Source: Octopus sinensis (Eukaryota). From it: a DNA stretch of 64,000 nt. Position 1 is the stretch's first letter. The number at the start of each line of letters is the position of its first letter. The translations under genes and the position numbers were made by a program. Under the pieces are notes generated by a model. That model did no database searches and was not told where the DNA came from. It saw only the letters and a list, made by a program, of their open reading frames with translations. Shown here piece by piece: positions 703 through 64,000 of the stretch. Location of the stretch: positions 85,994,001 through 86,058,000 of the forward strand of contig NC_043002.1 in NCBI RefSeq assembly GCF_006345805.1, written 5' to 3'.

Positions 703-747
703 GGACCACTGATGCGGTCACAGGAGTGTGACGAAAGAACTTTGGCC
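703..747 (+). ncRNA. hammerhead-like motif with deviant core
   Basis: GGACCA-CTGATGCG-GTCACA(GGAG)TGTGAC-GAAA-GAACTT-TGGCC. Stems I and II are present, but A9 is replaced and stem III is poor. Confidence 0.4.
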
Positions 748-920
748 GAAATAAGATTAAGATTAATGTAAAAAATAAATATCACTGAAGCAAAATAACA
801 CCAAATATATAGTGCGTGTGTTTTTATTGGCTAAACTGGCAATATGACCATTCCGAAATATAACAATATCTGTTTCAACACACGACTTCACATAAAAAAT
901 CTTGCACAACAATATTTAAA

Positions 921-13839: not shown

Positions 13840-16800
13840 CTTTAAAAGATAAAAATAATTAACAGTAAAGCAAAAGCACATGAAAACAATGACAAAAAAA
13901 AAACAATGACAAAAAAGAAAAGCAATTCCAAAAAAAACCTTGAAAATATCTAAAGAAATTGTTGTATTAATGTTGTAATAGAAATAAACATGAATAAATG
14001 AAAGAACATGAGGTAAATAACTCTAAAGGAAGCTATAATGAAGTAGTTAACTTTAAAAAAGATAAATATTAATGCTCTAAAATGCAACTTTTGCAGGAAT
14101 TTGTTTCTTCTTATGGAATAGAAGACATCTTGATAACTGTGAGAGAGTTCAAAGGGTAAATAAAAATGTTTTGAGTAAGTGAATAACTCTGATTATATAA
14201 ATCAAACAGAAGAAAATTGATGAAAAGACACTTGCTGTCAGGTGGAAAATTTTTTAAAATCTATTTGAAGTCTTCAAACTGAACTTTACCAACTATAAAT
14301 CTCAAACTTCATCTTTGGCCACAAATTAGTATGTCAAAGACATTGAAATGACAGGAAAAAAAAAGATGTAAAATAAGTAAATAAATAAATAAAACAGTAA
14401 ACACAATTACAAGCCTTTGTTTTTTCATTTTCTTTGAGAAATTTTAATATTATTTATTACCTAAGATTACAGAAATAATAGAGAATAAACATTTCTTTCC
14501 TGGTACCAGCAAAGGAATCAACCACATTTAAAAGTTCAAGAGTTTTTTAAAAAAATAAACACAATAAAAATACAATAATTTTATCCTAGAACAACTAAAT
14601 TTAAATGAAACTGAAGAATAAATAATTATAAACAAATATACTTTTTCTAATTTCATATTCCAACTTTATGAATATATATATACAGTAAGAGAGCCAGCAA
14701 GGAATGGTAAAAGCTATACTTCCACTGACAATGGTTAAGAATCTGGAATTGCTTGACCAGAGAATAATGTTAGTTAACTGTAATATTTTTTGCCTAATTA
14801 CCTAATTTAATCTTAATTATTTGATATTTTCTATTACTGGAATATCAAGGTTCAATTTGAATAAACTAGAAAATGTATGTGGCTCTGAAGAAGGCTGAAG
14901 GTTCTTAACCATAGATGTTCAGATTATACTCAGATTAGAAAATTTGAATGGTGCAAAATATGACATATTTTGCTTTTAGTTTAGTACTAACTTCGGGTTA
15001 CATAATATTTGTTTCTAACATAGGGATTCAAATGTGGAAGGTGGATATAGCCAGTTAAGTCAATCTCAGTACTCAACTGGTACACATTTTATCAACCCCA
15101 AAGGGATGAATAGCAAAGTTGACCACAGCAGGATTTGAACTCAGAGCATTGAGATATGTAATTTAAATACCACAAAATATTTTGTGCCATTCAACTGATT
15201 CTGCCACTATTCTTATATTCTCAACCGTCCATCTTTTCTGTCCACTATTCCTGGGAGGGTTGTTGAAGTGGAATTCTCAGGTACCTCCTCTATAGGGTCC
15301 TATCAGTAGCAACAGTCTTTCCAGCTAGATTCCCAAGTGTCCCCAGCAGAGACTAGTGAGACTATTCTATGGATATTAACAATAATAACACTAACAAAAT
15401 TGGTGTCCAATAACTAATAAGAATTACAATTAATACAATATAAAATAGAAGAAACTAAATATTAAAAAAAATATTTTCTTTTCTAAAACCTAATTATTGA
15501 TAAAACACTTAAAAACCATAATCATTAAACTAATAATAATGATAATAATGCTTTCAATTTTGCCACAAGGGCAGCAATCTGGGAGGAAAGGATGAGTTGA
15601 TTACATCAACCCCAGTCTTCAACTGGTACTTATTTTACTAACCCCGAAAGGATGAAAGGCAAAGTCAACCTTGGCGGAATTTGAACTGAGAACAGTGACA
15701 GGCGAAATACTGGTGAGCGTTTTGCTCGGCATGATAACAATTCTGCCAGCTCACTGCCTAAAGAATAATAATAATAATCATCTTCTACACTTTCAGTTCA
15801 GGAAAACCTAAATAGAATACATCAATACAATCATTCTTACAAGATTAATGTATATTTATGAATAAAAAAAACAATATTTGAATAAGTTTGAAACATACCA
15901 AAGATATTTACCAAGACATATCAAAATTATAAACACATTTCTATGGGTATATAATATGAAAAGATAAAATACCCACGAAGAAAAAAAAACAAAATATACT
16001 GAAAATTACAGGATTAAGCATATTTTTTTTTTTAATTAAGAGTTTCCTCATAAAATTTGTTAAACCAATTTCTATCTAATATTTTCAGAAAAATGTGTAA
16101 TATTGTTTGCAAATTATCCATCACCATCAAATTTTTCCATTTTCCTCACATGACAATTTTTCCATTTTCCCCACATTTTCTTACTATACAAAGTAATACC
16201 ACTAAATTGTAAGAAATATATTTTTTAAAGAATTTCGCACATGGTTTTCCCACATAGTGCTTATTAGAACTTGTCACCCTTCACCCTGGTATAAGTTATC
16301 TAACTATAATTCATAGTTCTTAAATATGTATTAAAAAAAGAAAGAAATGTATGAAAAATGATAGGTGACAAATTAACATTTACTAATGAAGGGGTGAAAT
16401 AATATCAATATTAGCCAATGACCAATATTATTTTCATTTCTTTGGTAAGTATGGAAGACAACTCAAGACATATTTTGGCCTTATTCTGACTTCCTCCAGA
16501 AGATTAGCCTTTACTGTTCTTGTTGAAGTAGCATGATTTAATTTGAAAATATTAAGATGTCAATAATTAAACATTGCAATTTAATATGGCACTTTACCAT
16601 TTCTGCCGCTCTGTCAAACCATAGATATACCAAATATTGATTTTTAACTTGGGTGCAAGTTTGAAGGATGGTATATAGTTGATTATATATATCAACTGAA
16701 GTACTTCATGGACAATTTATTTTATTTACTACAGAAAAAGATAAGGCTCATGTTATTTTTAAGAATTAGAAAGTGTAGTTCATTGACTCTGTATGTTATT

Positions 16801-17169: not shown

Positions 17170-17478
17170 TGGCTTAGTGGTTAGGGTATTTAGCTCATGA
17201 TTGTGAGGTCATAAGTTCGATTCCTGGTGGCACATCGTGTCCTTGAGCAAGACACTTTATTTCATGTTACTTCAGTTCACTCAGCTGGCAAAGATGAGTA
17301 GTACTTGTATTTCAAAGGGCCAGCCTTGTCACACTGTGTCATGCTGAATCTCCCTGAGAATGCTAAGGATATGTGTAACTGTGGAATGCTCAGCCACTTG
17401 CATGTTAATTTCATGAGCAGGCTGTCCTGTTGAACAGGTCAACTGAAACCTTCATTGTCATAAGCGATGGAGCGTTAG
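17170..17478 (+). mobile_element. tRNA-derived SINE
   Basis: tggcttagtggttaggg (A box) and agttcgattcc (B box). The body is shared with 61230-61635. Confidence 0.75.
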
Positions 17479-19107
17479 TTAGTTACACTAAAATCTTGGT
17501 GCCACAGGTTCCAACCTTGGGTAATTTTAAGCTGTATTTATATATCATAAGGATATTTTTAGAAGTCAATTTTTCCACATTTTATAAATCATACACTGTT
17601 GCCAAACCCATTGAAAGGAGTAAAGGTCTACTGACTTTAAGTTATCCTAATTGCCCACAAAATCTCTTTTGGTAAAGACTGACCATAATTGGCAACAAAT
17701 AATAGAAAGATGTTTGAACAATGACAAGGTAAAAAAGAATTAAAACATCATAGTTTGCTAATTGGACTATTTTAAGTATTCAGAAGTAGATTTTCTTAGT
17801 AATACTAACTTTGCTTTTAGCTTTTAATTACCCTGAGAGATTTGGTTGGAAGAAAGAAAGTAGGATTGTTTAAAAATTCTACTCATTTATTAATCCTCTT
17901 GCTGCTTAAACCATTTCATGATAGCATTGGGATCAAATTTGAATAAGGAATGGGTGATACTGTTTATTGTGATTACTATTAAATTTTTATTTTTAAAATT
18001 TTGAATCCTATGGTAAGATTCTAGTTTTACTAAACACAAACTCATTTGTCAGATCAGAAAATACTCAGTATAGTTCCTTAGAGAACATCACTCATGACTT
18101 TGCTCAGCTAGGCATACTCCACCAATTATGATACACTGCATGTAATTTATCCAGCATAATAATTTGCTACTATTTGATATGTTTCTAACTATATTGTGTT
18201 GCTGATAGAGAAATGTCTTGTTGATGTCTAAGTGTACAGCAGTGACATTTGCTAACATTTGGTTTCATAAATGCAACATATTAAACAAGATATGTTTGAT
18301 TTGGTATCAGTTATTTTAAGATATTTTTATCTAATTTAACGAAATGCCAGAAAAATGCCAGAAAACTCTTGGAGCCCCAAACACTACAATATGTCTGTTT
18401 CTGCTTTTACCACTTCATTAATTTGATTCAATTTAAGGATATTTTTGTCAACAGTATTATGTTTCTGCTAGAATTTTTCCCAAAGCATAAAAAACAAACA
18501 AAAACATTTAGCATTTTTGAAAATAAAAGAAACTACCTAAGGGAAAATATTTTCTATATCAAGTTATGGATGTGTGGAAGAGAAGTTATGTGATAAAGAG
18601 TTATTTTAAATTAGATTCCACTGGGCAGCAACAACATGGATAAGTACCTTCTATCATAGCCAAAGGTTAACCAAAGTCTTGTGAGTGAAATTGAGTAAGA
18701 GAAAGTATGTAGCACCCAGCAAAAGAGACAATTCCTGTTTAGAAGTGTGAAATAAACTTAATTTCTACTTTAACACCAGGGCTTGACACCTAGTTGCCTT
18801 TAGTAGAGTACACTGTTACAAGAACTCTGGCTAGGTCTTTGGTTCAAAAAAATTTTCCACTCTTCCTTCCACCAGTTACAGAGTTCTGAGTAAGTCATTG
18901 GAAATGTAATTTTGGGGATAAAATAAAATAAAACTAATTTCCTTTGAATTTCTGAGGACATATTCTACCTAGTGTCCTCAACTTGCTTGTTATGGACACT
19001 ACATTTCAGCCATAAAACCCAACGACCTTCCTTAGATACCTGCTGTTTTCAATAATGTTCTTAGAATTTTAAAATGAAATCACAAGAACAGTAGCAAATA
19101 TAACAGG

Positions 19108-20333: not shown

Positions 20334-21892
20334 ATTAAACTTCAACACATTAACAAAAGCTTCATTTTTCACATGAACGATAAATATAACTACTATAAAA
20401 GAACATTAGATTATTTTAAAGAGTTTTTATAGTAAATGAACAATCAAATGAAAATCAAGAGAGAAAATATTGCAAGCAAATTATCTATATATTTATTAAT
20501 TACATCTATTGATTTAACATTTCACAGTTTTAAAACATTAAAGTTTAATTGCCAGTGGCTTATATACACAGGCTCTATAGAAAACAAGGAAAACTAACAG
20601 GATAATGCTTTGATGCATATTCCTAATTAATATTATGATATATATATATATCATAATATTAATTAGAAGTATCAAAGCATATATATTCTAATATGATATA
20701 CATATATTCTAATTAAAAGAAAAATTAATTTATTCTATTTACTAATCAAAATACAATATTAAAAAAAAGTTTAAAATATCAACTAACTTTTAAATGTAAT
20801 ATATCAGCCAAATGAGACTTATGAGGGAAATTAAATTAACCCTTTTGTTATCATGTTTCTGTTGAAATATACTACTTTTATATTTCAATTAATTTTGAAA
20901 ATAATAAAGAATTCAATAAATAAGTTTATTAAAATAATTTTATTATTATTAAGTTGGAATTTAGAACATAAATTAACATAAAATTTTGATGGAAGGATTT
21001 CATCTAGAACACTTTAAACTCATATGGTTTTGTATTTTAGAACCAAGGGTAGTCTTGTTAAGATATAGTAACTGCAAATGATAACATTAAAGTTATAAGC
21101 TTACGTCATAATATGTACATGTATTTTATTTGTCAGGATAAAAATTTTTATGCAATTCAGGTTTTTGGTTCTTGTAGACTTAAATGAAATAATGGAGTAA
21201 GTGTTTAATTCAAATGAAACTATTGCAAATTATATTTTCTCCCATGTGATAGATTAAACCATGTAAACATTTTTTTTTATAAATTTTTTTTTATGATGAA
21301 ATAATTATAAGTTTAAAAAGACAAACTTTTAGTTTGAGAACAAGTCTTTCAACAATGAACTTCCTAGGATAACTGAGTTCTCATGTCATCTTAGCAAAAG
21401 GTCTATGTATTTGTATCCAGAAATGTAAATATCACACTCTATAAGTACAGTCATGGCTATGAAGTTAAGAATTTCACTTCTCAACCATATAGTGTTGGGT
21501 TCAGTCCCACAGTGTGACAACTTGGGCAAGCCCCTTCTATTGTAGCCCCAAGCTGTCCAATGCCTTATGAGTGAATTTAGTAGTCAGAAATACTATTTAG
21601 AAGCTTTTCATACAATATATGCATACATATATACATACATATGTGTGTATACACACAATAATCCTTTCTACTATAGGTCCAAAGCCTGTAATTTTGCAGG
21701 GTCAATGAAATACCAGTTGCATACGGGGGGTGGGGTGATTACATTGTCAATGGTATGCAACTGGTACTTCATTGACCATGAAAGGATGGAAGACAAACAT
21801 TACCTTGATGAAATTTGAACTCAGAATGTAAAGACAGAGGAAATGCTGCTAAGCATTTTGTCCAATGCATTAACAATTCTGCCAATTCGCCT

Positions 21893-21933: not shown

Positions 21934-22400
21934 TATTATTATTATTATTATTTATGGGTTTTTCTTCTTCTTTCAAATTTGCTTCCATTTCTTGCCGAAT
22001 GTCTTCCCGACTCCTAGGGCAAAGAAACTCATAGTATACATTGGTAGGCCATTAAACTAAACTCACTAGTTCGTTCATTTTTTTTTTTTTGATAGAAATA
22101 AAGTTAAATTAAAATACATGAGTAGTAATAGTTCTCACATCGACAATGCTCTTCTCAATACGTGTGATGTACCAGTTAAGATAATCTTTTGCATTTCTTG
22201 CAGGGATGGTAAGCCAGGGATCATTCTCATATAATTTTCAGTTCCCTTCTTGATCATTCCTAGTGCTCCTACGATTACTGATATTGTAACCGCCTTGAGA
22301 TGCCACATTTTCTCAATTTCAATGAGCAGGTCTTTATATTTTCTGAGCTTGTCAAATTCTTTCGCCGAGATATTATGATCGCAGGGGATGCTCATGCTTA
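21932..22400 (-). mobile_element. 5'-truncated R4/Dong-clade non-LTR retrotransposon in a (TAA)n site
   Basis: SIPCDHNISAKEFDKLRKYKDLLIEIEKMW...VIVGALG is the C-terminus of a restriction-like endonuclease. The 3' UTR ends in (TAA)n, and (TAA)n also lies on the 5' flank (22404-22426). Confidence 0.8.
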
Positions 22401-22629
22401 TCTTTATTATTATTATTATTATTATTAAAAACAATTTGATTCAGTTCTGAGCAGGTTAATTTTTTTTTTTAAGTTCATAACAGGAACTAGTTTGTTTAGG
22501 CACTTGAACCTAGTGAGCTACAAAACTTGTAAGTTGCATGGAGCTAAATCAAACTGTTTTAAATAATATATGTAACTTCTACTAAATATGCTGAGTGCTT
22601 CTTTCTGTCACTCATCTGTGGCTAGAGTT

Positions 22630-28326: not shown

Positions 28327-28479
28327 GGAATATAACTCCAAACTTATAGGGAAAAATTCAATTTAGTATTAAATCAAATTTCACAATATAAAGATATGAA
28401 ATATATATTATTGTTATTTATGTTTTGGTTTTTGTCTATCACTGTTTGAGTTGCATAATAATGGTTTGATCTCTAATTC

Positions 28480-28595
<116 letters not shown>

Positions 28596-32830: not shown

Positions 32831-33230
32831 ATGATATGTATTAGAACAAATTAAATATATGTGTGCATGTGTATGACTATGTATGGCACACTCAAATGTC
32901 TCATGTTTATAGATAAAGGAAAATAATCATGTTTACCTTCCTGATGTGAATTAGAGATGTAAGTGAAATGGTTACAGCTGGAGCTTGAATTCAAAGCTAA
33001 ATTATAAATTTAGCTCTCCAAAAACTTACTTCAAGACTATACTGTGACTTTTATAATCACATTGTAAATATCATCACTAAATAATGGGGAGTTGAAAATA
33101 TATGAATGTATATGCATTTAATGAAGATATGCTTAATAATGATGTTTTTGTTGAAATTTTATGATAATTGTTAGTTGAAAACAAAACAGAAAATTTTAAA
33201 AGAAAAGAAATTTAAAAGGTATATATCTAC

Positions 33231-34284
33231 CTTGATTTGGACAATGACGGTGCAGTTCTGTTTACTTCGCAAGCAGCAGACATGGGAGAGGATGATGATG
33301 GTAAAGAATGTTGAAAGAGAGGAGGTGGAGGCAGCGGAGGCGGCGGCGGAGGAGGAGGTGGTGGAGGTGGTGGCGGCGGTAGGTCATCAGTATCACTTTG
33401 CATAGAGAGGCTGTCAGTGTCCTGTGATGATGAAAAGCTTTTCTCCAGCTCTTCAATAAGAGACTGTGGTGGTGGTGGTGGAGGAGGTGGCGGCGAAGGA
33501 GAACAGCCCATTTCTCTACTTGGGTTACTTAAGTGTAAGTATTTGGGCATGTCTGAAGTCATTCGAGCAATCTCCTCCTCTTCTTTATCAAAGTGACTTG
33601 GCAGCTTCTCAGCATTGGCTTCTGAGAGTTTCTTGGAACCCACTTGGATGGAGGTTGTATAGTTATTATTAATTTTACTAATTTGCACAGGATCCATTTT
33701 TCGAGCAAACTTTTTATTTATCTGGATTTTCTCAATAGATGAACGCCCACTACAATCTCCTTTGCTAGACCAGGAATAGAAGTCTTCAGAACCTTCTATT
33801 GGACGGCTACGATAGTCAGAAGATGGAAGGACCTGTGAAGGATTCATTTTTTGACCTGGAGAAGTGGAAGAATGTTCTGCATCTTGCTTGTCATCTTCAG
33901 CAGCATTCAATGAACTCGAAGTCGATGGCTGATTACTATTGGAAGCTCCTGGAATTATCGCAGATTTCTCTGCTAAATATGGGAAGCTGAATGGGGCAGG
34001 TGGTGTTGGTGGAGGAGGAGGTGTTGGTGGAATAATGTTTGTTGTTAGTGGGGGCAAAATTCTCACTGCAGAAGCTGGTAATGAAATCGTATGTGCTGGC
34101 AAGCTGGCTCCAATGCTCAGAGAAGCAGAATTGTGGGGTGATGCAGAAGGAGACGAGGAGGAGTTGAAACTTACACACGTTGAGTGACGGTTAGAGCGAG
34201 ATGAAGAAGTCTTCCAATAAGAACTGGCTGCTGGTGGAGGTGGAGGGGGTGGTATTGACGACGACTGTTTTATGTGTTCTGCAA
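33231..34284 (-). CDS. ESPN: espin/forked-like gene, proline-rich exon
   Basis: ORF 33227..34300. Acceptor tattttatctcag (alternative AG 6 nt downstream, same phase), donor AAG|GTAGAT, phase 1/2. Four polyproline tracts including DDLPPPPP. Confidence 0.85.
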
Positions 34285-34681
34285 CTGAGATAAAATACAA
34301 CTGCGTGTTAGATACTGAAAATTTGATAATTCATCTGCAAGTTAATTGGGAAATAATAGCAATGATAATATTACATAATGATGAACAGCTTGAGGAATAC
34401 TGTTTCAATATTATGCATTGATAATTAATAACGTAACATAAATAATTTTTTTTTACATTTGGAATATTGATTTTTTTTGCTATTTATTTTAACATTTGTA
34501 TTAAATGGGATTTATATAATTTGAAAAGGATTTAAATTTTACATATAAAACCATTAAATAATAATATAAAAAATAATTTCGAAATGTAGAAATTATAGGT
34601 ACAGATCCTCTATTCCTAGAATGAACAGTTGGATGTTACATGTATATGCATGTACATCTGTATGCATAGGTACATATATAG

Positions 34682-42879: not shown

Positions 42880-43815
42880 ATGCCATGTACAAAAGAAACC
42901 TTGGACCTATTTGAATTTCAAACAGGCTACATTGTGGGTTTTCTGCAGGTGGACATAATCAATGTAAAATTGCAGAAAACCTTGGGATCCCATTTGCTAC
43001 AGTTAATAGAGTGATTGTGCAATTCACCAGAGAGGGGAAGGAGTCCACATCGCTTCATGCAGATCAACTAGGGCCCTCTGACAGGACCCTTCTCTTTGTT
43101 AAGAGAAGTGTGGAGGATAATCTTTGTTGCAAGGCCTCTGACATAGCAGAACAAGTTGATGTCAGTCCCAGAACAGCTGTTAGGTATCTCCACAAACTTA
43201 GTTACTATGGCAGAGCAGCAAGAAGGAAGCCATTTCTTTGACCAAATGGAGAAAAAATTGAGCCTGTAAGATGGTGGAGAAGCCACTAGCATTTTGGGAC
43301 ACTGTCATATTCTCTGTTGAGTCCAGATTTGCTGTATTTCTTGACAGTAGTCGAGTGTAGGTCTGGAGACTCTGTGATTAAGAATTTGATGTGCAAAGAT
43401 TGCAGCCAATAATGAAACATGGTCTGAGGAGCAATTTGAAGCAATAGTTGATCAGAGCTGATGGAGTGTGAGAGGAACATAAACTCAGATAAATACATAT
43501 CCATATTGGAGAAAGGACTCCTTCCAACCTTTTCCTGTGGTGAAATGATTAAAGAAGACTCTTTATTTATGGAAGATGGGGCTCCTTGTCACACAGGTAA
43601 AAGACCCAAGATTTGTTGGGTGAGAATGGCATTAAAAAGCTTCCATGGCCAAACCAGTCACCAGATATGGACCCTATTGAACTCTTCTGGGACATAATGG
43701 ACAAGACACTTCATAAAAAGAACAAGAAAGCATCTTCAAAGCTAGATCTTTTGAGATTACTGCATGAAACTTGGCAAGAAATTCCACAAGAGAATATTCA
43801 TCATCTGATCATGCC
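42880..43815 (+). pseudogene. Tc1-family transposase remnant
   Basis: Frameshifted pieces [13 protein letters not shown]...ARRKPFL, WDTVIFSVESRF, FMEDGAPCHT and WPNQSPDMDPIELFW (DD34E-type motifs). Confidence 0.9.
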
Positions 43816-45805: not shown

Positions 45806-46317
45806 TGTAGTAAAGATTGTTTGCCAACATGACATTGCAGTCCTGGTTTAAGATGAATGTTTCTGTAATTTAGCCCCAGGAGACATTATCTCCAGCTGGC
45901 TATACAACACGATCTGTGTCCTTATATTTTCAAACAAGGGAATCTAGCATCCCCACTCTGGGGAAAAATTTGGACTGGTATTTGAAGAAGATATAGATAA
46001 TCTCACTATTTCTAAATCTCACAACATGAGATATTGAGCAACAGTGCTGTGTAGTAAAGATTGTTTGCCAACATGACATGGCAGTCATGCTAGATTCCCT
46101 TGTTTGAAAATATAAGGACACAGATCGTGTTGTATAGCCAGCTGGAGACGATGTCTCCTGGGGCTAAATTACAGAAACATTCATCCTAAAACAAGACTGC
46201 CATGTCATGTTGGCAAACAATCTTTACTACACAGCACTGTTGCTCAATATCTCACATTGTGAGATTTAGAAATAGTGAGATTATCTATATCTTCTTCAAA
46301 TACCAGTCCAAATTTTT
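45806..46317. repeat. 244-bp structured unit: partial tandem plus inverted permuted copy
   Basis: 45806-45842 is repeated at 46050-46086. 46087-46317 is the reverse complement of the unit. Confidence 0.9.
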
Positions 46318-51946: not shown

Positions 51947-52207
51947 CTGAGAGAAAGAAAACAAACAGGAAATATAACAGAAAATATTTCTCTCTTAATC
52001 AGAGAGGTAGTCCTGAAACATCAAAGACTATATCTCAGCTGTAGCTAGTACCTTAATGTCAATAGCCTGTATATTGAATAATGTCAAACACCTGTTACAT
52101 AATGTAGATGGTGTTGTCAGCCCAATTAATCTGCATCATCATCATTTTACATGTTTTTCCATGTTTGCAAGAGCCAGATGAGTACTCCCCCACATCCAAC
52201 ACAGCAT

Positions 52208-52512
52208 GTTGTTGTTCCTTCTCGAGCCATGCCTGGCTCATAAGGGCCGGTTTTCCGGTTTCTTGGTGCATAGGTTCCCCACCTGAGCGGAACACCGGTC
52301 CGTCGCAGGTGAGCTGCAAGATGCAGGAGGAAAGTGTGAGAGAAAGTTGTGGTGAAAGAATCAGCAGAAGTTTCGCCATTACCTTCTGCTGGAGCTGCGT
52401 GGAGCTTAGGTGTTTCGCTAATAAACACACACATCGCCCGGTCTGAGATTTGAACCCACAATCCCTCGACCGTGAGTCCGCTGCTCTAACCACTAGGCCA
52501 TGTGCCTCCACT
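52208..52512 (-). mobile_element. full-length tRNA-derived SINE with 10-bp TSD, inserted in a degraded RTE
   Basis: Same family as 8347-8654. TSD aacacagcat at 52198-52207 and 52513-52522. Confidence 0.9.
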
Positions 52513-54307
52513 AACACAGCATCCTATCACTTGTTGTATTCCATTGTCATCTTCTTTGTGAGGTTCAGCTTCCTGAGATTAGTCTTCACTATTTCTACCC
52601 ATGTCTTCCTTGATCTTTCTCATCCACTGGTTCCTTCTACATGAGTCTCTGGATCTCCTGGCATTTCTATACTTATCTGTCATCATTTAGATGTATTGTA
52701 TGCCTGTACCAACATAGTCATCTCTCTTGTTCATTACATATGGTTCCTTTTCTACCCCGTTTTTTCCTCACTTTATTTGTGCTTTATCATTCATACTCAC
52801 TAACTAACATTACATATCAAGCAGATTATGCTTGCACCATTTATTTCCAGCCTTCACACATCCTCTGCATACTATTTTTACATCTCATTATTGTGCAGCA
52901 TTGCAGTTCATTGTAGCATCATGCCCATTGCTTTTCATGAAGGAAACTCAAACAGCATTTGTAATGCTTGGTGTCCAAGTGCTGCTGCCAGGTGGTACTT
53001 CATTTAAATGTATTGAGCAATCCGTAAGTTAATGATTGCTTTCTAATATAAGTTGTACTGTTGTCAAAGCATAACATAAAGAGAACCTCTTTATGCTTAA
53101 AAAAAAAAGAACAGTAATAGACAGCATGTATTATGTGTAATAAATATGATTGACGTACATTTTAGTGAAACATAAACATTGAATGGAGATGTGGATAACA
53201 GAAATGCACAAATAACCAAAAGAGCAAGAAAGACAACTATATTTGTTTGGTATGTGATATAAATAAATGATGAGTGTTGGCTAATACTGATAAGAAGTAA
53301 AGACAGAAGGGGAAGTCTGTGAAAAGTAGTGATGAGTTCAGATCTTAGGATTTTGGATTTTCAAATCAGTTCATTCACTTGTTCATTTGTTTAATATCTG
53401 TTTTACCATACTAGCATGGGTTGGAAAAGGATTTATTTTAAGGCAACATTTTACAGCTAGATGTTTTCCCTGTTGTCAACCCTTAACTGTTTTGCAATAA
53501 AGGGTTTTAAAAAAAATTTTATCAGCAGTCAAAGATGCAGAAAAACTAGCTGTAATGTCAATACAGAATGTCAAAATCATATCACTGCTTTGCTTAGATG
53601 GTAACAAGAGAAGCTGTGGGATGTCTACCTTTAGACATACATACATGCATAGATGTTGGTGCATGCATGCATGTGCACACACACACACACACCAAATTCA
53701 CCCACATGGCATTCGTTGGACTGGCGGGGTATAGTACCCTAGGTGCTTCACAGTAGGACTGAACCTGAAACTATATAGTTACAAAGCAAACTTCATAGGC
53801 TCACAGATGATAACTATCCAAAATTACTAATGGCATATCATAATGCCAACCCATAGAACATAAATGATGAAACACTGCTGTTGATATAGAAGCTGCTGCT
53901 AATAAAGATGAGGGATTAAAAAAAGGTTTTAGTAAAAGAAAGGCAGTGTTCAAGACCTTTTTTTTTTTGTGGACTGACAATATTGTTTAGGGAAAAGGCT
54001 TGATGGTATGTTTAAATCTTGATGCAATGTGTCATACTACAAACAGACTGTAAGTCAGGAGCATTTTCTCCAAACCAGTCTTGGAGATCTTGCAAATAGG
54101 AAGAACCCATGAGTTACAGATGTAAGAAGTAGAACCTGAAGATATCAAGATATACTCAAACTGGAACTCTGATCTAAATGATTATAACAGAATAGATTCC
54201 TCTAATGGCACCCAAGAGCATGACAGTTATGTGAAAAACTGCAACAGTTCAATTGTGAATTATTTTTTAAATTTTTATTTTTTGATATCTTTCAATTGTG
54301 AATAATG

Positions 54308-54720
54308 TGTCCCCAAAGTCCATCCCCTCCTCACCGTGGTGGGGATGCTGGCAACGGGTAGTGCCGTCAGGAACTTCGGTTCCTGGTAGGGCCACCCAAA
54401 GCAGATTGGTCTGACACCGAGTGGTATTAGGGCCACAACCCGGCAGACGGGGCTCTGGTGAAAATCCTCGGAGTGTCTGTTTTGGCAACCGGTGGCTCCT
54501 TGGTCGTTCTGTCCCTGCGTCTGTGGACAATCTGTGGCAAACAGGATGTCTCTACATGCAGGATTGTTGGGGACTGCTTGTGAAATCCACATATTCCCAT
54601 AAAACTTCTTCCATGAATTCTCAATGGTGAATGTTCGAGATGCCTTGAGGGTGGTAGAAGAAGCTGACTCAACCCGTCCAGGGTGAATGTTGCCACAAGT
54701 ACAAGTACAAGTAAGTAAGT
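54308..54720 (+). mobile_element. short non-autonomous RTE-type retroelement with 14-bp TSD
   Basis: TSD aattgtgaataatg at 54294-54307 and 54721-54734. RTE-like 5' motif TCCTGGTAGGGCCACCCAA and (CAAGTA)n tail. No tRNA head. Confidence 0.75.
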
Positions 54721-57700
54721 AATTGTGAATAATGGACAGTTCCTTTTCCTGTAATATTTTCTTTTTAATGAGAATAGTCAAGTAGTTCCTTACAGCAAGA
54801 AACCTGCTCAGCTCTGGCCCCTTCTCTCATACTATTTCCCATCTTTTGCCCTTAATCTACTAACATGAAGTTGTCCCCGCTACTTCATCATGAATTTGTA
54901 GTCTTGCAGCCTGCATGATGACCTCACTCGTGTTGATAGCACCAGAAAAAGCACTCAGTACATGCTGCAAAGAAGTTAACATTAGAAAGGACACCACAGA
55001 AACCACGCCAAAGCAGGTAATGGAGTATGATGCAGTCTTCAGGCCTATTGGATCCTGTGAAACTGTCCAACACATGCCAGCATGGAACATGGACATTAAA
55101 TAATGTTGATGAAGATGATGATGATGATGATGATATATGGAGTTTTACTTGTTTGGCAACTAATTTCATTTTTCAAATCTTTTTGTCAAGAGGAAAAGCA
55201 GGGTCCACAACCCCTCTGAAGGTCTCTGAGACTGGTGGGAAGAAGGAATGGGGTAAGACATTCTCAAAGCCTGGCTTGAATATTTACAAGACAATTCATT
55301 GAGAATTTACAACACACTGGGACTCTGTTAAAGACATCCAAGGTGCCAGGTAGTGATGGTAAACAAGGTGAGAAATTAAGTTTACCATTCAAGATTACTA
55401 CCAGAGGGAAATTTGAACTCAGAATGCAAAGAATTCAAACAAATACCAGAAATTGCCAGATCTGACTTTTTATATCATTCTGCCAATCTACTGTCCTGAA
55501 TTTGTACCTGAATTATTGATCCCTGAAAGAGTTAAAAGGCAAAGGATGACCTCAGTGTGATATGAATTTAGAGAGTAGAGAGTTGGAACAAATAATGTGG
55601 AGTATTCTATTCAATGAAGCAGTTATATCATGGAAGAGTCATATTAATCATTTAACAACACAAAAATCTATTATATTCATTCTTCAATTATTTCTTGATG
55701 TGATGATGTAATTGATTGTAAATTTCTTTCATACATAAAGAAAACACACACATGAACACACACAAATGTAAACACACATTTAAGTAAAAACACCAATTAT
55801 AATATCTAAAAATTATAAGATTAATACTGAACAACCAACGTGTTGCTAAAGGTGCAAAATTATGATTGCTTTAGTTTCTGTGTGAAGGTGCATGGCCTAA
55901 TGGTAATAAATTTGGACTCACAATCATTAACTCATGAGATCAATTCCTAGATCAAGTGCTACATTTTTTATTTTTTTTAGCAAGGCATTTTATGTTTCCA
56001 GTCTACTCACGTAAAAATAAATACAAATAGTGGTAGATGAGAGTTAAACATGATGAACTGGTGTGCCAATCAAGGCTGAGAGAGGGACTTTTATATTCTC
56101 AGTCACTTAAATATCTAGAAAACCAAGTCAAGCTCAGATCTAATAAGCCTGTTGTCTTGAGACAAACATTAGTCTGCGTAAGTAAGATTGAAGAGGTAAG
56201 TAAAACAGGAAGGGTATCTAGCTGTAAAAACATATATTTTAACAAAAGCCAGCTTTCCAGAAATAGCATGAAAAAAATGTTTTAAATCTTAGAAAAATAC
56301 AATGAAACATTTTCTCCTTTTCTCCAATATTGTATTAAAGTGATATGAAATATTGATTGAATTTTACTTATGCATTTATTTGATTTATTTTTATCTTGGA
56401 GGAGGAAGAGCAATAATCACCTCTCCAAAATATTGCAGAGGAATAAAGTTTGGTTTCAACACGGAACACAATAAACCTATGGCTGACATACTAGACTTTA
56501 TCGATTTCTTTCCTTGCTCTGACAGCCACTTTATAATGAACGCAACCAAAAACATATGAACTGCAAGCAGGAACCTTTACATGTTTTCTTGACATGCTAT
56601 AAATAGCAGCCAGATTTTCTTCAACTAACATCTTATCTTTGAAAAGGAGAGAACATACTGGCTTTTGAAGTTTACATGCATCCCAAAAGATGAGATAGTC
56701 ATAGCAGGAATGCGTTAAATCATAGGTTCCCAACAACAACAACAACAACAACCACCACCACTAAATGCATAAATTTAAAAAGCTGCTACATGTTACATTA
56801 TAGATAATTTTTTTAAGTTTTACAGAATATTGTTTTAGCTAAACTGTGTGTTTGTAAACAGAAACATGCACATAGTTCACTGTCCTTCGTAATATCTATA
56901 GAAAGGAGTATTAGGTACAAGGTACATTTCTATCAATATTTTAATCTTGATAAATAAATCATTAATCCAGCTGAATATAAAGCAATATTGTATTTTGGAT
57001 CCATTGATCTCTTTCTGAATATCTCGAGTCGCTTGGCATCCTGTTTCCATGCTGACATAGAAATGGCAGACAGTCACAAAACTAACTATACAAATATAAT
57101 ACATATAGTGTTACAGTTTCAATAAGATACGAAATACTTTTTATACACACAAACACACACACACACACATGCATACATGCACACACACACACACAGAGGT
57201 ATACATGCACACATACACATGCGTACACATCTCTCATAACCAGGCTATAGATTTTCATTTGTTCCTATTATCATAGGTGCAGTGGGCTACATAACAACAG
57301 AGATGCATAGAAAACTGGAAAAGCTTGGGTTCTACAAAAAAACAAAAGAGCAGACTGATTTGTATCCTTGAAATACAATCGATTAGAGAAACAGAAAATT
57401 TGGAAAACATTTCAGGGATTCTCCATTTGAGGTTCCTGGGGTGAAAATATGCATACAATCACTACACAGAAAAATATGACTAATATTTACTACACTAGGC
57501 TGAAAAAACAAGTTTAAAATGATAACCTTCACCCAACAATATTACCACACCTAAATCAAACTATGCCACTAGTGAAATTCAAAGTAAAGGGCTCACTACT
57601 TCTGATAACAATTATGTCTCTATTAATTATGTAACTTGGGCTACAAATGGAAGGCACTTGATATGGTCAGCCCTGGTAAACACTTCCCACTTAAAATACA

Positions 57701-57914
57701 GTGGAAATAATAAGAAAAATTGGAAGCATGAAGTCCTGTGGTTCACACATCATTCTCTTTAATGAGTTACAGCCCAACATAAACTCTTTAAAATCTTTAA
57801 GTTAAATTTCCCATCCCAACAAGCCCACTATCAAACTCTCCTTTTCCACTACACTTAAGCTCAGCCCTATACTCATAACATTGAATGATGAAAGTAAGGG
57901 CTTGTAGAAAAGAA

Positions 57915-58570
57915 CCCTAATAATACCAATAACAACTGTTGTGATTATAATAATAGTAATGATTATTTTCATAACTGTTCCCATAAAAGCAATAATGACA
58001 GAGATAATATCACTTGTAAGAAAAGCATAAAAATGACAACCCTCAGTAACGATAACAACTGTAGAGACAATATGGACAAATGTCTCCAAAAATCATGGAA
58101 TAACAACCATGATAGAGCTAAAAATAAAACAATACTGATCCTAGTATTGGTAACACTGATTGGAGCAATAATGATAATAGCATTAATGGCAACAATAATG
58201 ATATAGGTATCCATAAGAATAATAACTATAATAAATGTAATCTTAACTATACTATTAATAACTCCTATAGTAATATTATATATCAATCTTGCAATAACAA
58301 ACATAGTCAACCAACCCTAGCTAATAAAGAAACTCCTGCACATTCAAAATTAGGACAGTATCATAAACAGTGTTAATGGTTATGATAAGAATAATAATAA
58401 TATGAGCAGTGGCTCACATAGCAGTAGTTATAATCATTATAATGATTATAATCATAATAATAATATTTATTGTTAACGTAATGATTCTAATAATAATTAT
58501 AATACTAACAATGATATTAGCGATAAAGATATTATTAATAATAGGATTGATAATATGGGTACATATAATG
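57915..58570. repeat. degenerate (ATA)n low-complexity tract
   Basis: Explains the Ile-rich spurious ORFs here. Confidence 0.75.
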
Positions 58571-59311
58571 ATCTTGACAAGACAAACAGAGCATCCTGTG
58601 TATGTGAGATAGGAAGACATGCAACATCAGAATATCTACTAATTGTCCCTTGGAGAGCTACTGTCTATGCTGTGATATTGTGTATAAGTGTATAGTTACC
58701 ACAGCACACTTATATTCCTTCAGAATTTACATTGGCTCAATGACTAATTTTAAATGTCAATACCATACACATATTAGCTAATTCTTAAACACTAAATGAA
58801 GATTCTCTATCACCCTAACTGTCACTGCTTTTACAAAACTTTTTCATATTACCATAAATTGTTATGCTCTGATTGAACAAGTCAAGTCTTTGTACTCAAC
58901 TTTCACCCTTTGGCCATTCTTCCACTTCCTCCATAACACTTGTCTACTGATTATGTCATTCCAATGACCATCATCTCATCTCATCTCTCAAACTCTATAT
59001 TCCTTTATGTTACGCTTACATATGTTGTGCCCTGAAGGAAATCTTGTCCATTGCACACTCCTATTTATTTCCCCTTCTCTTCCCTCAAGTTAGCAGTTCA
59101 CTGTTATTCTCCCAACTCACCTTCCTCCTCCCTCATATCTTATGCAACTGCTATATTATACAATGCTTGCCTCTATACTTTGACAGGGCTTGTTTTTATT
59201 TCCTACCCATCCTTAGTCTGATATGATTAATGTGGTGATTCTTTTGAGCTGGTCCACCTCACAATATCTGTCTCTTACTTAGCTTTATAGTCATTGTCCA
59301 GTGGTGGAGCG

Positions 59312-59807
59312 AGGAAGCATCGATGTTTCCTAGGGCTATATAGCGGTGGTGTAATTCCCTCTACGAGACTGTCACGTTATGTTGACTTTATACAACCACT
59401 CTATCACTCCACCACCGCTCGTGTCTCTTTGAGACATTTAGAAATTCAATATTTCTAATTATGGTGACCAGTGAATAGATTTCAGTGTAAATAGATAAAT
59501 TTGCGAAGGTTTGGCAAGTATCACCACTAGCGGGGACTCGCTACCCTGGATTGATGACGGACAAGACCCAGAAACATGCATGTCTTCAGGTTGCTAGTCC
59601 TAGCTGGTGGGGGTGCTTGCCTCCCCTTTGCAAATATAAGGACACAGGAAATGTGTCAAAGCCGACAGGAAGTGTCAATGCTTCCTAGGGCTATATAGCG
59701 GTGGTGTAATTCCCTCTACGGGACTGTCACATTATGTTGACTTTATACAACCACTCTATTGCTCCACCACCGCTCATGTCTCTTTGAGACATTTAGAAAT
59801 TCAATAT
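59312..59807 (+). mobile_element. retrozyme-like element: 355-bp unit (1.4 copies) containing a hammerhead
   Basis: 59312-59452 is repeated at 59667-59807. A hammerhead lies at 59545-59590 and the unit has many hairpins. Confidence 0.7.
59545..59590 (+). ncRNA. type I hammerhead ribozyme (slightly mutated)
   Basis: CCTGGA-TTGATGA-CGG(ACAAGAC)CCA-GAAA-CATGCATG-TC-TTCAGG: 6-bp stem I, palindromic stem III, GUC triplet. C3 is replaced by U and stem II has one mismatch. Confidence 0.65.
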
Positions 59808-59843
59808 ATATATATATATATATATAATAATAAATATTAGGGA

Positions 59844-60149
59844 GTCTCCTCAACTTTATCATCTAGGTCAAATATTATTTGACCAAAGGTTATTGATTAG
59901 AAATAATGTTTCTGATCAATAGTCTTAGTTCAAATGTTTGACTTATTTGATTAAAAAGCTGTTAATGTTGAACAAATAAATGACAACAATTGATCAGATT
60001 GAACCACCTGATGAATGTCCAGAGAAGTGACAAGAAACGATCGTAGTGGATATCTTAATTATATTTAATTTATATAAAATTTTTTATGTATTGGATTAAG
60101 TCTTTCTTTGTTTGATTTGCATAATAGTGGTTTTGTCTCTAATTAATAT

Positions 60150-60180
<31 letters not shown>

Positions 60181-60535
60181 TTATATATAAATATATATAT
60201 AAATATATATATAATTATATATAATATATAATTATATATATAATATATATAATTATATATATATATATATGTATATATATTAAAATATAAAATAATTTTC
60301 TATTATACCAAGAAATTACAGACTTCATAAAGCATATATAATATATTATTATTAGGTTAAAGGTGTCTCCTCAACTTTATCATCTGCATAATTAACTAGG
60401 TCAAATATTATTTGACCAAAGGTTATTGATTAGAAATAATGTTTCTGATCAATAGTCTTAGTTCAAATGTTTGACTTATTTGATTAAAAAGCTGTTAATG
60501 TTGAACAAATAAATGACAACAATTGATCAGATTGA
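59844..60535 (+). repeat. ~160-bp direct repeats (period ~521-533) bracketing a hammerhead; Penelope-pLTR/retrozyme-like
   Basis: 59844-60002 recurs at 60365-60535 with a 12-nt insertion. Confidence 0.8.
60004..60049 (+). ncRNA. minimal type I hammerhead ribozyme
   Basis: CCAC-CTGATGA-A-TGTC(CAGAGAAGT)GACA-A-GAAA-CGATCG-TA-GTGG. The core is canonical, stem III is palindromic, and there is an A.A mismatch at the base of stem II. Confidence 0.75.
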
Positions 60536-60807
60536 TCAAACATGACGTAGACATTTTGAAATCTATTAATATGGTGACTAACTTGAATAGCAGGTCACAA
60601 GAGTGATGAGACAGGATCTGAGTACTATAGGCATTGTCTGCTGGCTGATTAGGACACATTATGTATATGGATGACAAGTGTAGAGTGGAAAAGACTCACA
60701 CATTAGCAATAAAGTACCCAAAACAGATGAAGCAGAGCAAAAAAATTATGTACATAGATTTCAGCATGTTGGACATCACAAGTAAGGCGACAAAGGATTA
60801 TGATGAG

Positions 60808-61077
60808 CACTGGCTTGGGAAGGAAATTTCCTTAGGGGGTGCAAACCCCGGTCCAAAAATACTTACAAACAAGGTCTTATTTTTTTTTTTTTGTTATTTT
60901 TGTGTTTGGTTCTTTGAGATGGAACCTAACTTCAAGCTACTTTTTACACATCACTTTTTATTTACCATTTTCTAAACCTGAGAAAAATTAGTAGGGCTGC
61001 AAATTTTCGTTCTGCACTCTGCAAAAATTCTAGAGGGTGCGCTTGCACCACCTGCACCCCCTGTTCCCGGGCCCATG
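60808..61077. mobile_element. hAT-superfamily MITE
   Basis: 8-bp TSD atgatgag at 60800-60807 and 61078-61085. Imperfect TIRs CACTGGCTTGGGAA / TTCCCGGGCCCATG. Confidence 0.75.
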
Positions 61078-61229
61078 ATGATGAGTGACTGATACAAAAG
61101 GTACATAATCCAATGCATCTCAGTAAGTTTGACTGACAACAAGTTCTAATTTTATCTTACAGATGAAAGAGTAGTAATAGAAAGAGTATCTAGTTATAAA
61201 TCCAAACTCTAAAAGTGCATGCTATGAAC

Positions 61230-61596
61230 AGTGCCTGTATTTCAAAGGGTCAGCTTTGTCACATTCTGTGTCATGCTGAATTTTCCTGTGAACTACATTA
61301 AGGGTATATGTTTCTGTGGAGTGCTTAGCCATTTGCATGTTAATTTCATGAACAGGCTGTTGTCTTGATGGCATGGAGAAATGGATTTAAAAATAATTGC
61401 GTGTGAATAAAACTGGCACTCCATCAGTTATGATGATGAGGGTTCCAGTTGATCAGATCAAGAGAACAGCCTGCTCATGAAATTAACATGCAAATGGCTA
61501 AGCACTCCACAGAAACATATACCCTTAATGTAGTTCACAGGGAAATTCAGCATGACACAGAATGTTTCAAGGCTGACCCTTTGAAATACAGGCACT
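61230..61596. repeat. inverted pair of SINE bodies (~120-bp arms)
   Basis: 61230-61351 is the reverse complement of ~61465-61596. Same family as the 17170 SINE. Confidence 0.85.
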
Positions 61597-61693
61597 ATTC
61601 ACTTTTCCCAGCTGAGTGGACTGGAGCAATTGGAAATAAATATGCCCATTCAAGTATCATAATAGCATAATAATAGCACTTTTGATTGTGTAT

Positions 61694-61732
<39 letters not shown>

Positions 61733-62779
61733 CTACTTATCCCACTACTTCTACCACACCCTTACACGCTCCCACCCCTTATTACTTTAGTTCACTGGAA
61801 GTGAAAAGCTGACACTGTAGTACATCTCCAGCTTATAAAACTTATAAAACATCACTCATTTTAAGAAAGTTTCTGTCTTTTAGTATGAAATCATGGAAAA
61901 CAACATTGATATTGAACAATGAGAAGAAATCTCTGAACGTAGATGATGTTGAAATCTCATGTATTTTTCAGCATTATTCTCTGTCATTCCTCCTCTTTTG
62001 TCTAGTTCTGATGCCTCTACCAATATTACTCAGTTAAACACAATATGGCTATAAATTTTATGAGAAAACTATTGGCCATCTTTTTCACATGGATAATAAA
62101 GAGCCGGTGGCAAGATGGGAACCACTGGCCTATAGACTGGTTGTACATAATGCTATTAATTCAGCCATCCATGTCTTCTGAATCATGGAACACATTTGCA
62201 TCTGTTGATATCAAAAACATAAATAGTGAATTTGGTAAGAGGTTGGAAGGGGGAATAATAAAAACACATAGAAATTCCTGGTTTCCTACAGATTTACATC
62301 TGAAGGACTTTGCTCAAATACCTTATCAGCTGTTCTAATAGTCAGCCTTTTGAATGTAATAGGTTATTTCAGACAAATGAATCGATATTTAGACATTTGT
62401 ACATATTGATGCGTGTGAAAGAGAGAGAGAGAGGGGAGAGAAATAGGGAGAAAGAGAGAGAGAAAGAGGGAGGAAGAGAAAGACAATGAGGAAGAGGGGG
62501 ATTTAAATTTTGAATTCGCAAATTTTAAAACAATATGGATATTTACACAAGCATTTTCTGCGTTTAAGAATGGATTCTCTTCCAAAAGTAACCACTTAAC
62601 TCTTACAGCAATAGAAATTGTACTTATTTTACAGTTATAGTGATTCAAGCCAGTGGAGTTCATGTAACTTCAAATTAAATTCAAAACAATTATGATTCAA
62701 GTGTATTGAAATAACATGTATAATCATGGTTAATCTTGGGTTACAAATGAGAGAAGTAAATAAAAAACAAACTACATAC

Positions 62780-62914
62780 TGGTTTATATGGATACTCTTT
62801 GATGGCTTTGGAACAACTTGGTTGGCAGCAGCGGTCAGCCACATCAGCAGCTGTTTGGCCAGTGCTGTCTTTGATATTTGGATTGCAATTATGCCTCAGC
62901 AGGATTAAAACACA
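62780..62914 (-). CDS. ESPN: espin/forked-like gene, exon encoding last ankyrin repeat
   Basis: Acceptor tttcag, donor CCA|GTATGT, 135 nt, phase 0/0. Translates CVLILLRHNCNPNIKDSTGQTAADVADRCCQPSCSKAIKEYPYKP, an ankyrin pattern (LL...NPNIKD..GQTAAD) resembling espin's last ANK repeat. Upstream ANK exons presumably lie beyond the window. Confidence 0.85.
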
Positions 62915-64000
62915 CTGAAATTAGATTAAATAGTTGAAAAGATGAAATATTCAGCAAAAGAAGATAAATTTATTTAAAAAATTTTTTTTTAAATATATTT
63001 TATCAAAAGAAGAATGAAATAAAATTTATTAAGAAAATTTTTTAAATATATTTTATCAAAAGAAGAATGAAATACTTGTCAGAGTGGTAGCATATAGTAA
63101 ATATCTCTAATCAATGATTTAGATAGCTTGAATATTTATTAGGCTTTTGAATAATAAACTCTTTCTCAGCTATACATAATTTGCAATGAGTTGTCATATT
63201 TCTGTATGACCTGCATCCCTTTGAGGATCTTCCATTTGATACTGAAATCAGTAGCATGTTCTTTGATACTTTCACTGTATTCCTATTTTCTATATAGGAG
63301 GAAGTATAACTAAAGTATCTTTGTTTAAATTTTTTTTCTACAATATCTACATAGTGTTCATCATATTATGTGGTTTACTATATGATCACCATAGGAGTAG
63401 TAGTATAAGAAGTAACAATTTCCTTGCAAAAATAAACAAGAGTACTTACTACTATAGTTGAGTGATACACACATGCATGCATATATATAATGATATATCC
63501 TATTATTACAACATCTAGTTTCATACCTACCCAATGCTAACCAATGTCAAATACCCAATTACTCAAATATCAACAACGTATATGTTGTAAGAATAGAATG
63601 TTTCAGGTAGTTCATTGTGGATTAAAAATACTTTGTAAGGGGTGTAACCCATTACATATTACTGTTGTTGAGATTAGCTATTTCCCTCAGGTAGTTAGAA
63701 ACTCAGGTGGTTTGCAAAACTTAAAAATATAACGGTTGGAGAACATAAATAAAACATAAAATATGAAGAGAAAAGAAAAAAACAAGGAAATGAAGATATG
63801 AAAGAACATGTAACATCCTCAAGAGATGCACACCACACAGAAATGACAAACTGTTGCAGGTTATTATCTTTTTACTATCTTAGTCATTGGACTGTGATAT
63901 TACGAGGAAACTGCTTTGAAGGGTTAAATCAATCAAATCAAACCAACTCCAGTACTTATTTTAAAATCTGGTGCTTATTCTATCAATCTCTTTTGCTGAA

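Follow-up and report, generated by a model that had tools for sequence, protein, structure and literature searches.

How did a hammerhead ribozyme motif that is present only once come to lie next to two nearly identical direct repeats at 60 kb in a 64,000-nucleotide stretch of the Octopus sinensis genome (NCBI RefSeq assembly GCF_006345805.1, contig NC_043002.1, positions 85,994,001 to 86,058,000; the whole stretch is referred to below as the window), and to what class of element does it belong? We regard it as very probable that the hammerhead is of the Penelope-derived class. The fuller account favoured here, in which a Penelope-like retroelement (PLE) that targets (TA)n gave rise to a short non-coding derivative and this was copied in trans over more than one unit, is evenly balanced in our judgement between being right and being wrong in one or more of its parts. 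Animal genomes contain thousands of dimer-type hammerheads at the ends of PLEs (PMC4209133, PMC7229834), and a further solo copy is of little importance in itself; the element is a real but ordinary case of a very large known class, probably silent at this locus. The broader interest lies in the role of the ribozyme in Penelope retrotransposition: in one reconstituted system, that of Frangieh et al. for a Poseidon element, ribozyme cleavage was dispensable for insertion in vitro and reverse transcription was initiated internally (PMC11167929). Here the repeat boundary falls two bases short of stem I, and this element and an unrelated neighbour have their layout in common; if such a boundary were found to recur genome-wide, it would be a clue to where reverse transcription starts.

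The features of the locus, with the two direct repeats designated R1 and R2, are as follows.

59804-59825 (no strand): (TA)n run, 18 nt to the left of R1 and also the right end of a neighbouring 355-nt element
59826-59843 (+): AT-rich leader, ending in a word common to the left end of a piece at 28.3 kb
59844-60002 (+): direct repeat R1, 159 nt, without 12 nt found in R2
60004-60049 (+): type I hammerhead with core, stems and palindrome, cut predicted after A60045
60004-07 and 60046-49 (+): stem I, CCAC/GUGG, 4 bp
60008-14 (+): core word CUGAUGA, followed by A60015
60016-19 and 60029-32 (+): stem II, UGUC/GACA, 4 bp with a 9-nt loop
60034-37 (+): core word GAAA, preceded by A60033
60037-44 (+): palindrome ACGAUCGU, stem III, 8 nt and perfect
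ending at A60045 (+): triplet GUA, with the predicted cut after A60045
60050-60147 (+): 3' tail, rich in AT and running up to (TA)n, with homology to 28394-28481
60146-60280 (no strand): degenerate (TA)n array between the repeats, from a microsatellite scan
60281-60364 (no strand): AT-rich spacer, with no other copy in the window besides low-complexity TA-like matches
60365-60535 (+): direct repeat R2, 171 nt, containing an intact 134-nt imperfect rod hairpin at 60371-60504
28394-28481 (+): sole relative in the window, a tail without ribozyme or R, in a 165-nt piece between two (TA)n runs

The hammerhead motif

The hammerhead motif is real. The core (CUGANGA, GAAA and UH) stands in type I order at 60004-60049, and stems I, II and III can be formed with 4, 4 and 2 bp, respectively, in the monomer, stem III extending to 8 bp in a homodimer, although the stems are weak in longer context. 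An earlier note on this DNA had reported a full CUGAUGA/GAAA core with a palindrome and had predicted a cut after A60045; all of the core bases and the 8-nt palindrome are indeed present, and the GUA triplet puts the predicted cut at the same position. The same note called the hammerhead canonical, and here the description is overstated. A canonical type I hammerhead requires a paired 10.1-11.1 (usually G-C), a 6-bp helix I and contact between loops 1 and 2, whereas here positions 10.1/11.1 at the base of stem II are an A60015·A60033 mismatch, stem I has 4 bp and the monomer adopts the hammerhead fold with a probability of 2e-4 (-2.0 kcal/mol versus -6.5 for the fold that competes with it). 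Cleavage is slowed when the purine-pyrimidine pair at 10.1/11.1 is lost. The Rfam hammerhead families have the same catalytic core, but no Rfam family matched in the window at the gathering score, and the 12 matches at E<=10 in 59200-60700 included no hammerhead family, only chance hairpins and snoRNAs.

The thought that such a motif simply arose by chance draws on this empty Rfam search and on several other results. The two core words alone occur at chance level in the window (11 matches at 5 places versus 6.96 expected, with 23 of 100 shuffles reaching 11), the monomer folds no better than shuffled sequence (z -0.34), and both descriptors used for the counts that follow, which allow the first stem II pair to mismatch, were written after the motif had been seen. 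At matched stringency the picture is different. The core with all three stems is matched once in the window, while any match at all was found in 1 of 200 locally shuffled windows and a match with the palindrome in none of the 200. A looser descriptor has 4 matches in the window (mean in shuffles 0.71, maximum 4, n=100), among which the 60004 motif alone has the exact core; 4 of 100 shuffles have such an exact-core match, and none of the 100 has one in which stems I and II are also at least 4 bp long. The palindrome is perfect and correctly placed and the distance to the shared (TA)n end fits, and we consider a chance origin extremely improbable. Both descriptors miss the more decayed ribozyme of the neighbouring element.

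A second hammerhead-like motif lies at 703-748 (+), just beyond the right arm of an inverted repeat at 1-684. Its core departs at a single position, where C stands for A9; one additional base precedes stem II, which has 5 bp and is closed by G-C, and loop 3 measures 2 nt. Homology between this motif and that at 60004 was considered and rejected as not significant (720 and 144 of 2000 shuffles).

Folding as a dimer

In the 46-nt homodimer, the double hammerhead is the lowest-energy fold, at -21.2 kcal/mol versus -6.5 for each monomer in another fold, with pair probabilities of 0.91-1.0 for the palindrome, 0.90-0.95 for the crossed stem I and 0.73-0.90 for stem II. When 73 nt of context are added to the dimer, the palindrome pairs at 0.81-0.90 and stems I and II at only 0.13-0.20. 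In silico, then, the hammerhead is predicted to fold only as a homodimer. A heterodimer with the ribozyme of the neighbouring element was rejected: the palindromes of the two cross-pair at +0.4 kcal/mol, compared to -10.0 and -13.3 for self-pairing, so that the two palindromes cannot pair and the ribozymes, which lie some 450 nt from each other, cannot be partners. The reading of the 60004 motif as a Penelope-type, dimer-dependent type I hammerhead unrelated to its 355-nt neighbour is supported.

The neighbouring 355-nt element

The neighbour's ribozyme lies within 59500-59625 (+) at the tip of a long rod, with its core beginning at 59551, a U at position 3, a 2-bp stem II and a 10-nt palindrome. 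The circular 355-nt unit folds at z -6.3 without any microsatellite, which makes the neighbour the better retrozyme candidate of the two. Its repeats are 132/141 identical and the order repeat-ribozyme-repeat is common to both elements, although their sequences show no significant similarity (an equally good score in 299 and 211 of 2000 shuffles). That a second, unrelated hammerhead family was inserted beside the first, as had been suggested, is half borne out: the two are unrelated in sequence and in palindrome pairing, and for 'family' it is the shared tail described below that gives support.

Homology of the DNA after R2 (60548-60590, +) to 59432-59478 of the 355-nt element was set aside, being borderline (with two scorings, 3/2000 and 44/2000 shuffles); in a comparison of 629 windows a stretch at 6.7-6.9 kb scores higher. 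The 60548-60590 stretch is possibly an old relative of the 355-nt element.

The direct repeats

R1 and R2 are identical at 159/159 aligned positions and their sole difference is one 12-nt indel, so the near-identical direct repeats of about 160 bp described around the hammerhead are confirmed. The last base of R2 corresponds to 60002 in R1, two bases ahead of where a stem I would start, again in agreement with the observation that the second repeat stops just short of the ribozyme. The 12-nt gap in R1 is flanked by CT dinucleotides (CT microhomology) and the missing 12 nt pair partly in the R2 rod, for which reasons R1 is probably the derived copy.

The rod of R, a hairpin that the earlier note does not mention, is an imperfect 134-nt palindrome in which 49 of 65 aligned positions are complementary. 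In R2 it folds at z -5.2 (1/200 shuffles), with a second run giving z -6.6 (0/200) on the + strand and -2.6 (2/200) on the - strand, and its energy is the lowest among 170 comparable windows (-47.2, the next being -47.1). The preference of the hairpin for the + strand (6 G·U versus 1 A·C, p=0.125, with 33 of 343 windows equally asymmetric) is suggestive, and an RNA-strand or A-to-I signature was rejected as not significant on the same counts.

No third copy of R is found in the 64-kb window. Nor is there an inverted partner of the left end of R2 in the window, which speaks against a Kolobok-like or other TIR end at that position. A MITE or other TIR element is defined by terminal inverted repeats with a target duplication; of R alone, the imperfect palindrome might be read in this way, but the left end of R2 lacks the inverted partner. 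A search of the DNA after R2 for a decayed ribozyme or tail found none (543 of 1500 nulls as good in an anchored alignment, 1500 of 1500 under two other scorings). To the left, the similarity of R1 and R2 may extend weakly for 24-31 nt into TA-rich sequence, the leader at 59826-59843 resembling the corresponding stretch left of R2 (30-50 of 1000 nulls as good). Among 140 self-matches of the window, long (>100 nt) local direct repeats of high identity occur only as R1/R2 and the neighbour's pair; a 40-nt direct pair is also present within an inversion at 45.8-46.2 kb.

Local inverted duplications, in turn, are a recurrent feature of the window. That at 1-684 is near-perfect (333/346 columns complementary) and centred on (TA)n at 311-378, with its left arm leaving the window. 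Those at 45806-46317 and 61225-61601 have 95-96% identity; the former contains a 41-nt match to the 355-nt element and the latter is an inverted fragment of an interspersed repeat that is found again at 17256-17480. With near-perfect inverted duplications at three other places, two of them lacking any ribozyme-like match, local copying must be considered common here.

The tail, its relative and the (TA)n runs

Between 60061 and 60147, the tail matches 28394-28481 in 68 of 88 columns (0/2000 shuffles as good), and both tail copies enter (TA)n at the same point, which supports this point as the 3' end of the family. The earlier note had found a resemblance between 60110-60150 and 28443-28485 and had taken this to mean that relatives exist in the window. 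The similarity is real and longer than stated, but it is confined to the tail and an 8-nt word: neither the ribozyme nor R was found in the 28.4-kb relative, and the 8-nt word shared by the leader and the 28.3-kb piece is not significant (978/2000 shuffles). A family of ribozyme-bearing copies would be more than the shared tail shows, the window containing no second core-bearing copy.

The (TA)n run at 59804-59825 is likely to be the left remnant of the target. That the element sits in (TA)n is true of this run and of the array between the repeats but not of the right end at 60535, where no TA run is seen. A 5-nt word shared at TA-run junctions occurs at 9 of 54 junctions against a background of 3.9% (p=2e-4, or 0.004 after two mirror copies are dropped), although the word was chosen after the fact and ranks 14th among all 5-mers; a longer junction word is not enriched (20/100 shuffles). 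At 20580-20690, a small inverted repeat surrounds a short TA run, and its arms have their final word in common with the tail at 60138-60150.

Comparison with known elements

The closest likeness is to the Hydra clade of PLEs described by Craig et al. (2021), which targets (TA)n and carries a hammerhead near the 3' end (PMC8557442). As at the 3' ends of Hydra/Neptune-type PLEs, a sense hammerhead starts here within about 200 nt of a 3' end abutting (TA)n, at a distance of 164 nt; in a hand count of the table of Hydra families (25 rows, after removal of an antisense duplicate from 26), 23 rows have a motif start at 87-210 nt from the 3' end, and (TA)n is the preferred target of 26 of the 27 families listed (PMC8557442). 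Elements such as Penelope-1_HM and Hydra-1_Obim share with the present one a sense type I hammerhead some 90-210 nt from the 3' end, an AT-rich tail, a (TA)n target and a self-complementary stem III, as well as 4-bp stems I and II (in many families) and a frequent mismatch at 10.1/11.1 (PMC8557442). The mismatch is no proof of decay, for 15 of the 25 rows have one (14 U·U and one U·C) and 11 of these 15 then have a U-A pair, as here, yet A·A is found in none of the 25 (PMC8557442). An axolotl ribozyme with U·U at the base of helix II still cleaves, and does so better as a dimer (PMC7229834). The octopus element differs from Hydra-clade PLEs in having no ORF, in its A·A and in its palindrome, which is perfect and of even length, without the single central base of theirs, and by eye it has no sequence match to the Hydra-1_Obim 3' end that is shown (PMC8557442). 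Of six short words from the window compared with one supplement of that paper, five were absent or at an unrelated place and the sixth had 28 matches (PMC8557442). Neptune elements favour microsatellites too, so that Hydra is not the only candidate clade.

Cervera and de la Pena reported that both repeats of PLEs carry type I hammerheads of minimal and small-palindrome form, which occur mostly as solo motifs that are weakly active and only as dimers, and called G10.1-C11.1 highly conserved (PMC4209133). The 60004 motif resembles these in being type I, with a short stem I, a palindromic 15.2-16.2 region and predicted dimer activity, and in being a single motif of the kind left by truncated elements; it departs from them in the lack of G10.1-C11.1, in a stem II of 4 bp rather than 7-8 and in lying outside the repeats (PMC4209133). 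In PLE pseudo-LTRs (pLTRs), each of the two repeats includes the ribozyme (PMC4209133, PMC6765202), and a short copy of the 3' end stands upstream of a longer one. The classical form of the partially tandem pseudo-LTR reading that had been proposed for this locus fails: here neither repeat includes the ribozyme, and the short copy lies downstream.

Animal retrozymes were derived from pLTRs according to Li et al., who state that an active one needs two ribozymes and who observed cleavage in one of nine dimers tested (bioRxiv 10.64898/2026.07.22.740005). Metazoan non-LTR retrozymes are, like the octopus element, non-coding and low in GC, with a type I hammerhead, and a derivation from PLEs has been proposed for them; unlike them, the element has about 1.3 units and a single ribozyme, and its unit, which includes a microsatellite, is above the usual 150-450 nt (PMC7229834; bioRxiv 10.64898/2026.07.22.740005). 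Long rods are typical of retrozyme RNAs (PMC7229834). A highly self-paired unit RNA, another retrozyme trait, may be present here too: the circular 521-mer folds at z -6.7 and 59844-60147 at z -4.5 (0/60 shuffles each), values driven by the R hairpin and the TA run. An active retrozyme, defined by tandem units with at least two complete ribozymes, is not what is found at 60 kb.

Bacterial and archaeal genomes gave 0 matches for the ribozyme pattern and 0 for the tail pattern, phages gave no match to the element, and six plasmid records with AT-rich matches of 31-42 nt (E>=2e-3) were taken as chance. A squid genome paper lists 235 hammerhead-1 hits (PMC6962438) and an Octopus vulgaris repeat annotation reports 31 recently active Penelope-like families, with none of the terms hammerhead, ribozyme or retrozyme in its main text (PMC13282606). 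A literature search covering mainly papers outside subscription journals found no paper devoted to such hammerhead elements in octopus or other cephalopods.

Coding capacity

The element is not overlapped by any ORF of at least 100 aa, and a six-frame Pfam scan of 52001-64000 gave 0 families in each of the 12 read-through frames, hence no reverse transcriptase or endonuclease (elsewhere in the window, Pfam was applied to seven chosen ORFs). An autonomous PLE, which needs an ORF with PLE reverse transcriptase and GIY-YIG endonuclease, is therefore rejected for lack of such an ORF. At about 63100-63600 (-), a frameshifted and decayed piece looks by eye like the GIY-YIG end of Hydra-clade elements in a published alignment (PMC8557442). 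It receives no support from Pfam, from phmmer over 1.84 billion proteins (0 matches) or from the ESM Atlas, where recognition was low and the clusters were of unrelated phage. Being on the strand opposite to the ribozyme and 2.6 kb away, the piece at most hints that such elements were once present in this genome.

How the layout may have arisen

According to the account that we favour, the unit would be a ribozyme about 100 nt upstream of a tail ending in (TA)n, and a reverse transcriptase with its gene elsewhere would probably have copied it in. Where transcripts of the family are tandem or multimeric, two ribozymes would pair and cut after GUA to give unit RNAs that may circularise, whereupon a Penelope-type RT/GIY-YIG protein acting in trans would nick (TA)n and prime reverse transcription. 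Copying beyond one unit (about 1.3 units of 521-533 nt), or a jump to a second template, would then yield two copies of R but a single ribozyme, R1 having undergone a slip of 12 nt. The copy at 60 kb would itself probably be silent, because it has one ribozyme, A·A at the base of stem II and no compatible partner nearby, and is probably antisense in a host intron. The account as a whole is supported by a motif that exceeds chance and prefers the double hammerhead as a homodimer, by the fit of its distance from the 3' end and of a mismatch at 10.1/11.1 to the Hydra table, by the same repeat-ribozyme-repeat order in the neighbour and by the common point at which the two tail copies end at (TA)n; more-than-unit copying from circles is, moreover, a published model for PLEs (PMC4209133) and internal initiation has been demonstrated (PMC11167929). 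It is weakened by the position of the ribozyme, outside the repeats and present once, by the roughly 135 nt of (TA)n that a 1.3-unit reading puts inside the unit while the right end at 60535 has no TA run, and by a sole in-window relative that lacks the ribozyme. The A·A mismatch, absent from the Hydra rows and at a pair called highly conserved (PMC4209133), the low pairing of stems I and II in longer context, the lack of any reverse transcriptase or endonuclease by Pfam in 52001-64000 (the Hydra-like piece being unsupported and on the other strand), the non-significant strand preference of the hairpin and the frequency of local inverted duplications in the window all count against it as well.

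The main rival, which we judge rather unlikely, limits the element to ribozyme and tail (60003-60147), a 5'-truncated Penelope-like 3' end inserted in (TA)n, and takes R to be local hairpin DNA, R1 having been template-switched from R2 while the 5' junction was joined. This would account for R1 as a deleted copy with a gap bounded by microhomology, for the bases after R2, which by eye complete a small hairpin that is broken in R1, for a tail-(TA)n end that looks like a normal family 3' end and for the want of a third copy of R in 64 kb, all in a window where local duplication is common. It has the drawback that truncation must fall within two bases of stem I by chance, while the 355-nt neighbour has the same layout and long rods are what retrozyme RNAs typically contain (PMC7229834). 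Next comes the possibility, a distinctly unlikely one, of two side-by-side insertions of one family, or of an old dimer that subsequently lost its second ribozyme, gene conversion having homogenised the R copies. PLEs tend to insert beside existing copies (PMC6765202) and TA-rich sequence ending in a similar word is found, weakly, to the left of both R copies; however, no decayed ribozyme or tail follows R2 and identity at 159/159 positions needs a very recent event. A duplication produced by assembly, with two haplotypes or contig ends joined at (TA)n, would leave the ribozyme real and the layout not. Zero substitutions between R1 and R2, the long TA run between them and several near-perfect local inverted repeats in the window are what such a join might yield, but the window contains no N, the repeats differ by the 12-nt indel and on both flanks, and the neighbour's repeats have diverged enough to indicate that such a layout can be old and real; we hold an assembly join to be very unlikely. 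Behind all of these comes chance, as discussed above.

A bolder reading is that the 521-533-nt unit is a circle-forming retrozyme carrying its own (TA)n target, with reverse transcription starting exactly at the 5' edge of the hammerhead. We consider it improbable. Were it true, the ribozyme fold would be a landmark for internal initiation and every new copy would end short of a second ribozyme; copies would be born with a single ribozyme and could cut only by pairing in trans with those of other loci. An active stem II closed by A·A would, if real, be a new natural variant.

Host setting and other repeats

The window is AT-rich animal-type DNA (GC 0.27-0.41) with many microsatellites and interspersed repeats. 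Three minus-strand ORFs are likely to be host exons.

62780-62914 (-): ankyrin-like exon with AG/GT ends (Ank_5 E=9e-4, below the cut-off)
33227-34330 (-): proline-rich ORF, from the ORF list
11901-13841 (-): long ORF with one 92%-identical protein match and none among longer proteins

If the three belong to one gene, the element would be intronic and its ribozyme antisense to the pre-mRNA. The candidate parts of the host gene (ankyrin, proline-rich and possibly WH2-like) may form an espin/forked-like layout on the minus strand. A bacterial promoter scan, a method not applicable to this DNA, was at chance level. Two further traces of mobile elements were noted: the stretch at 22135-22440 (-) resembles the restriction-like endonuclease end of a Dong/R4 non-LTR element, with no Pfam match, and a Tc1/mariner-like helix-turn-helix remnant lies at 42915-43241 (+) (HTH_23, E=3e-7).
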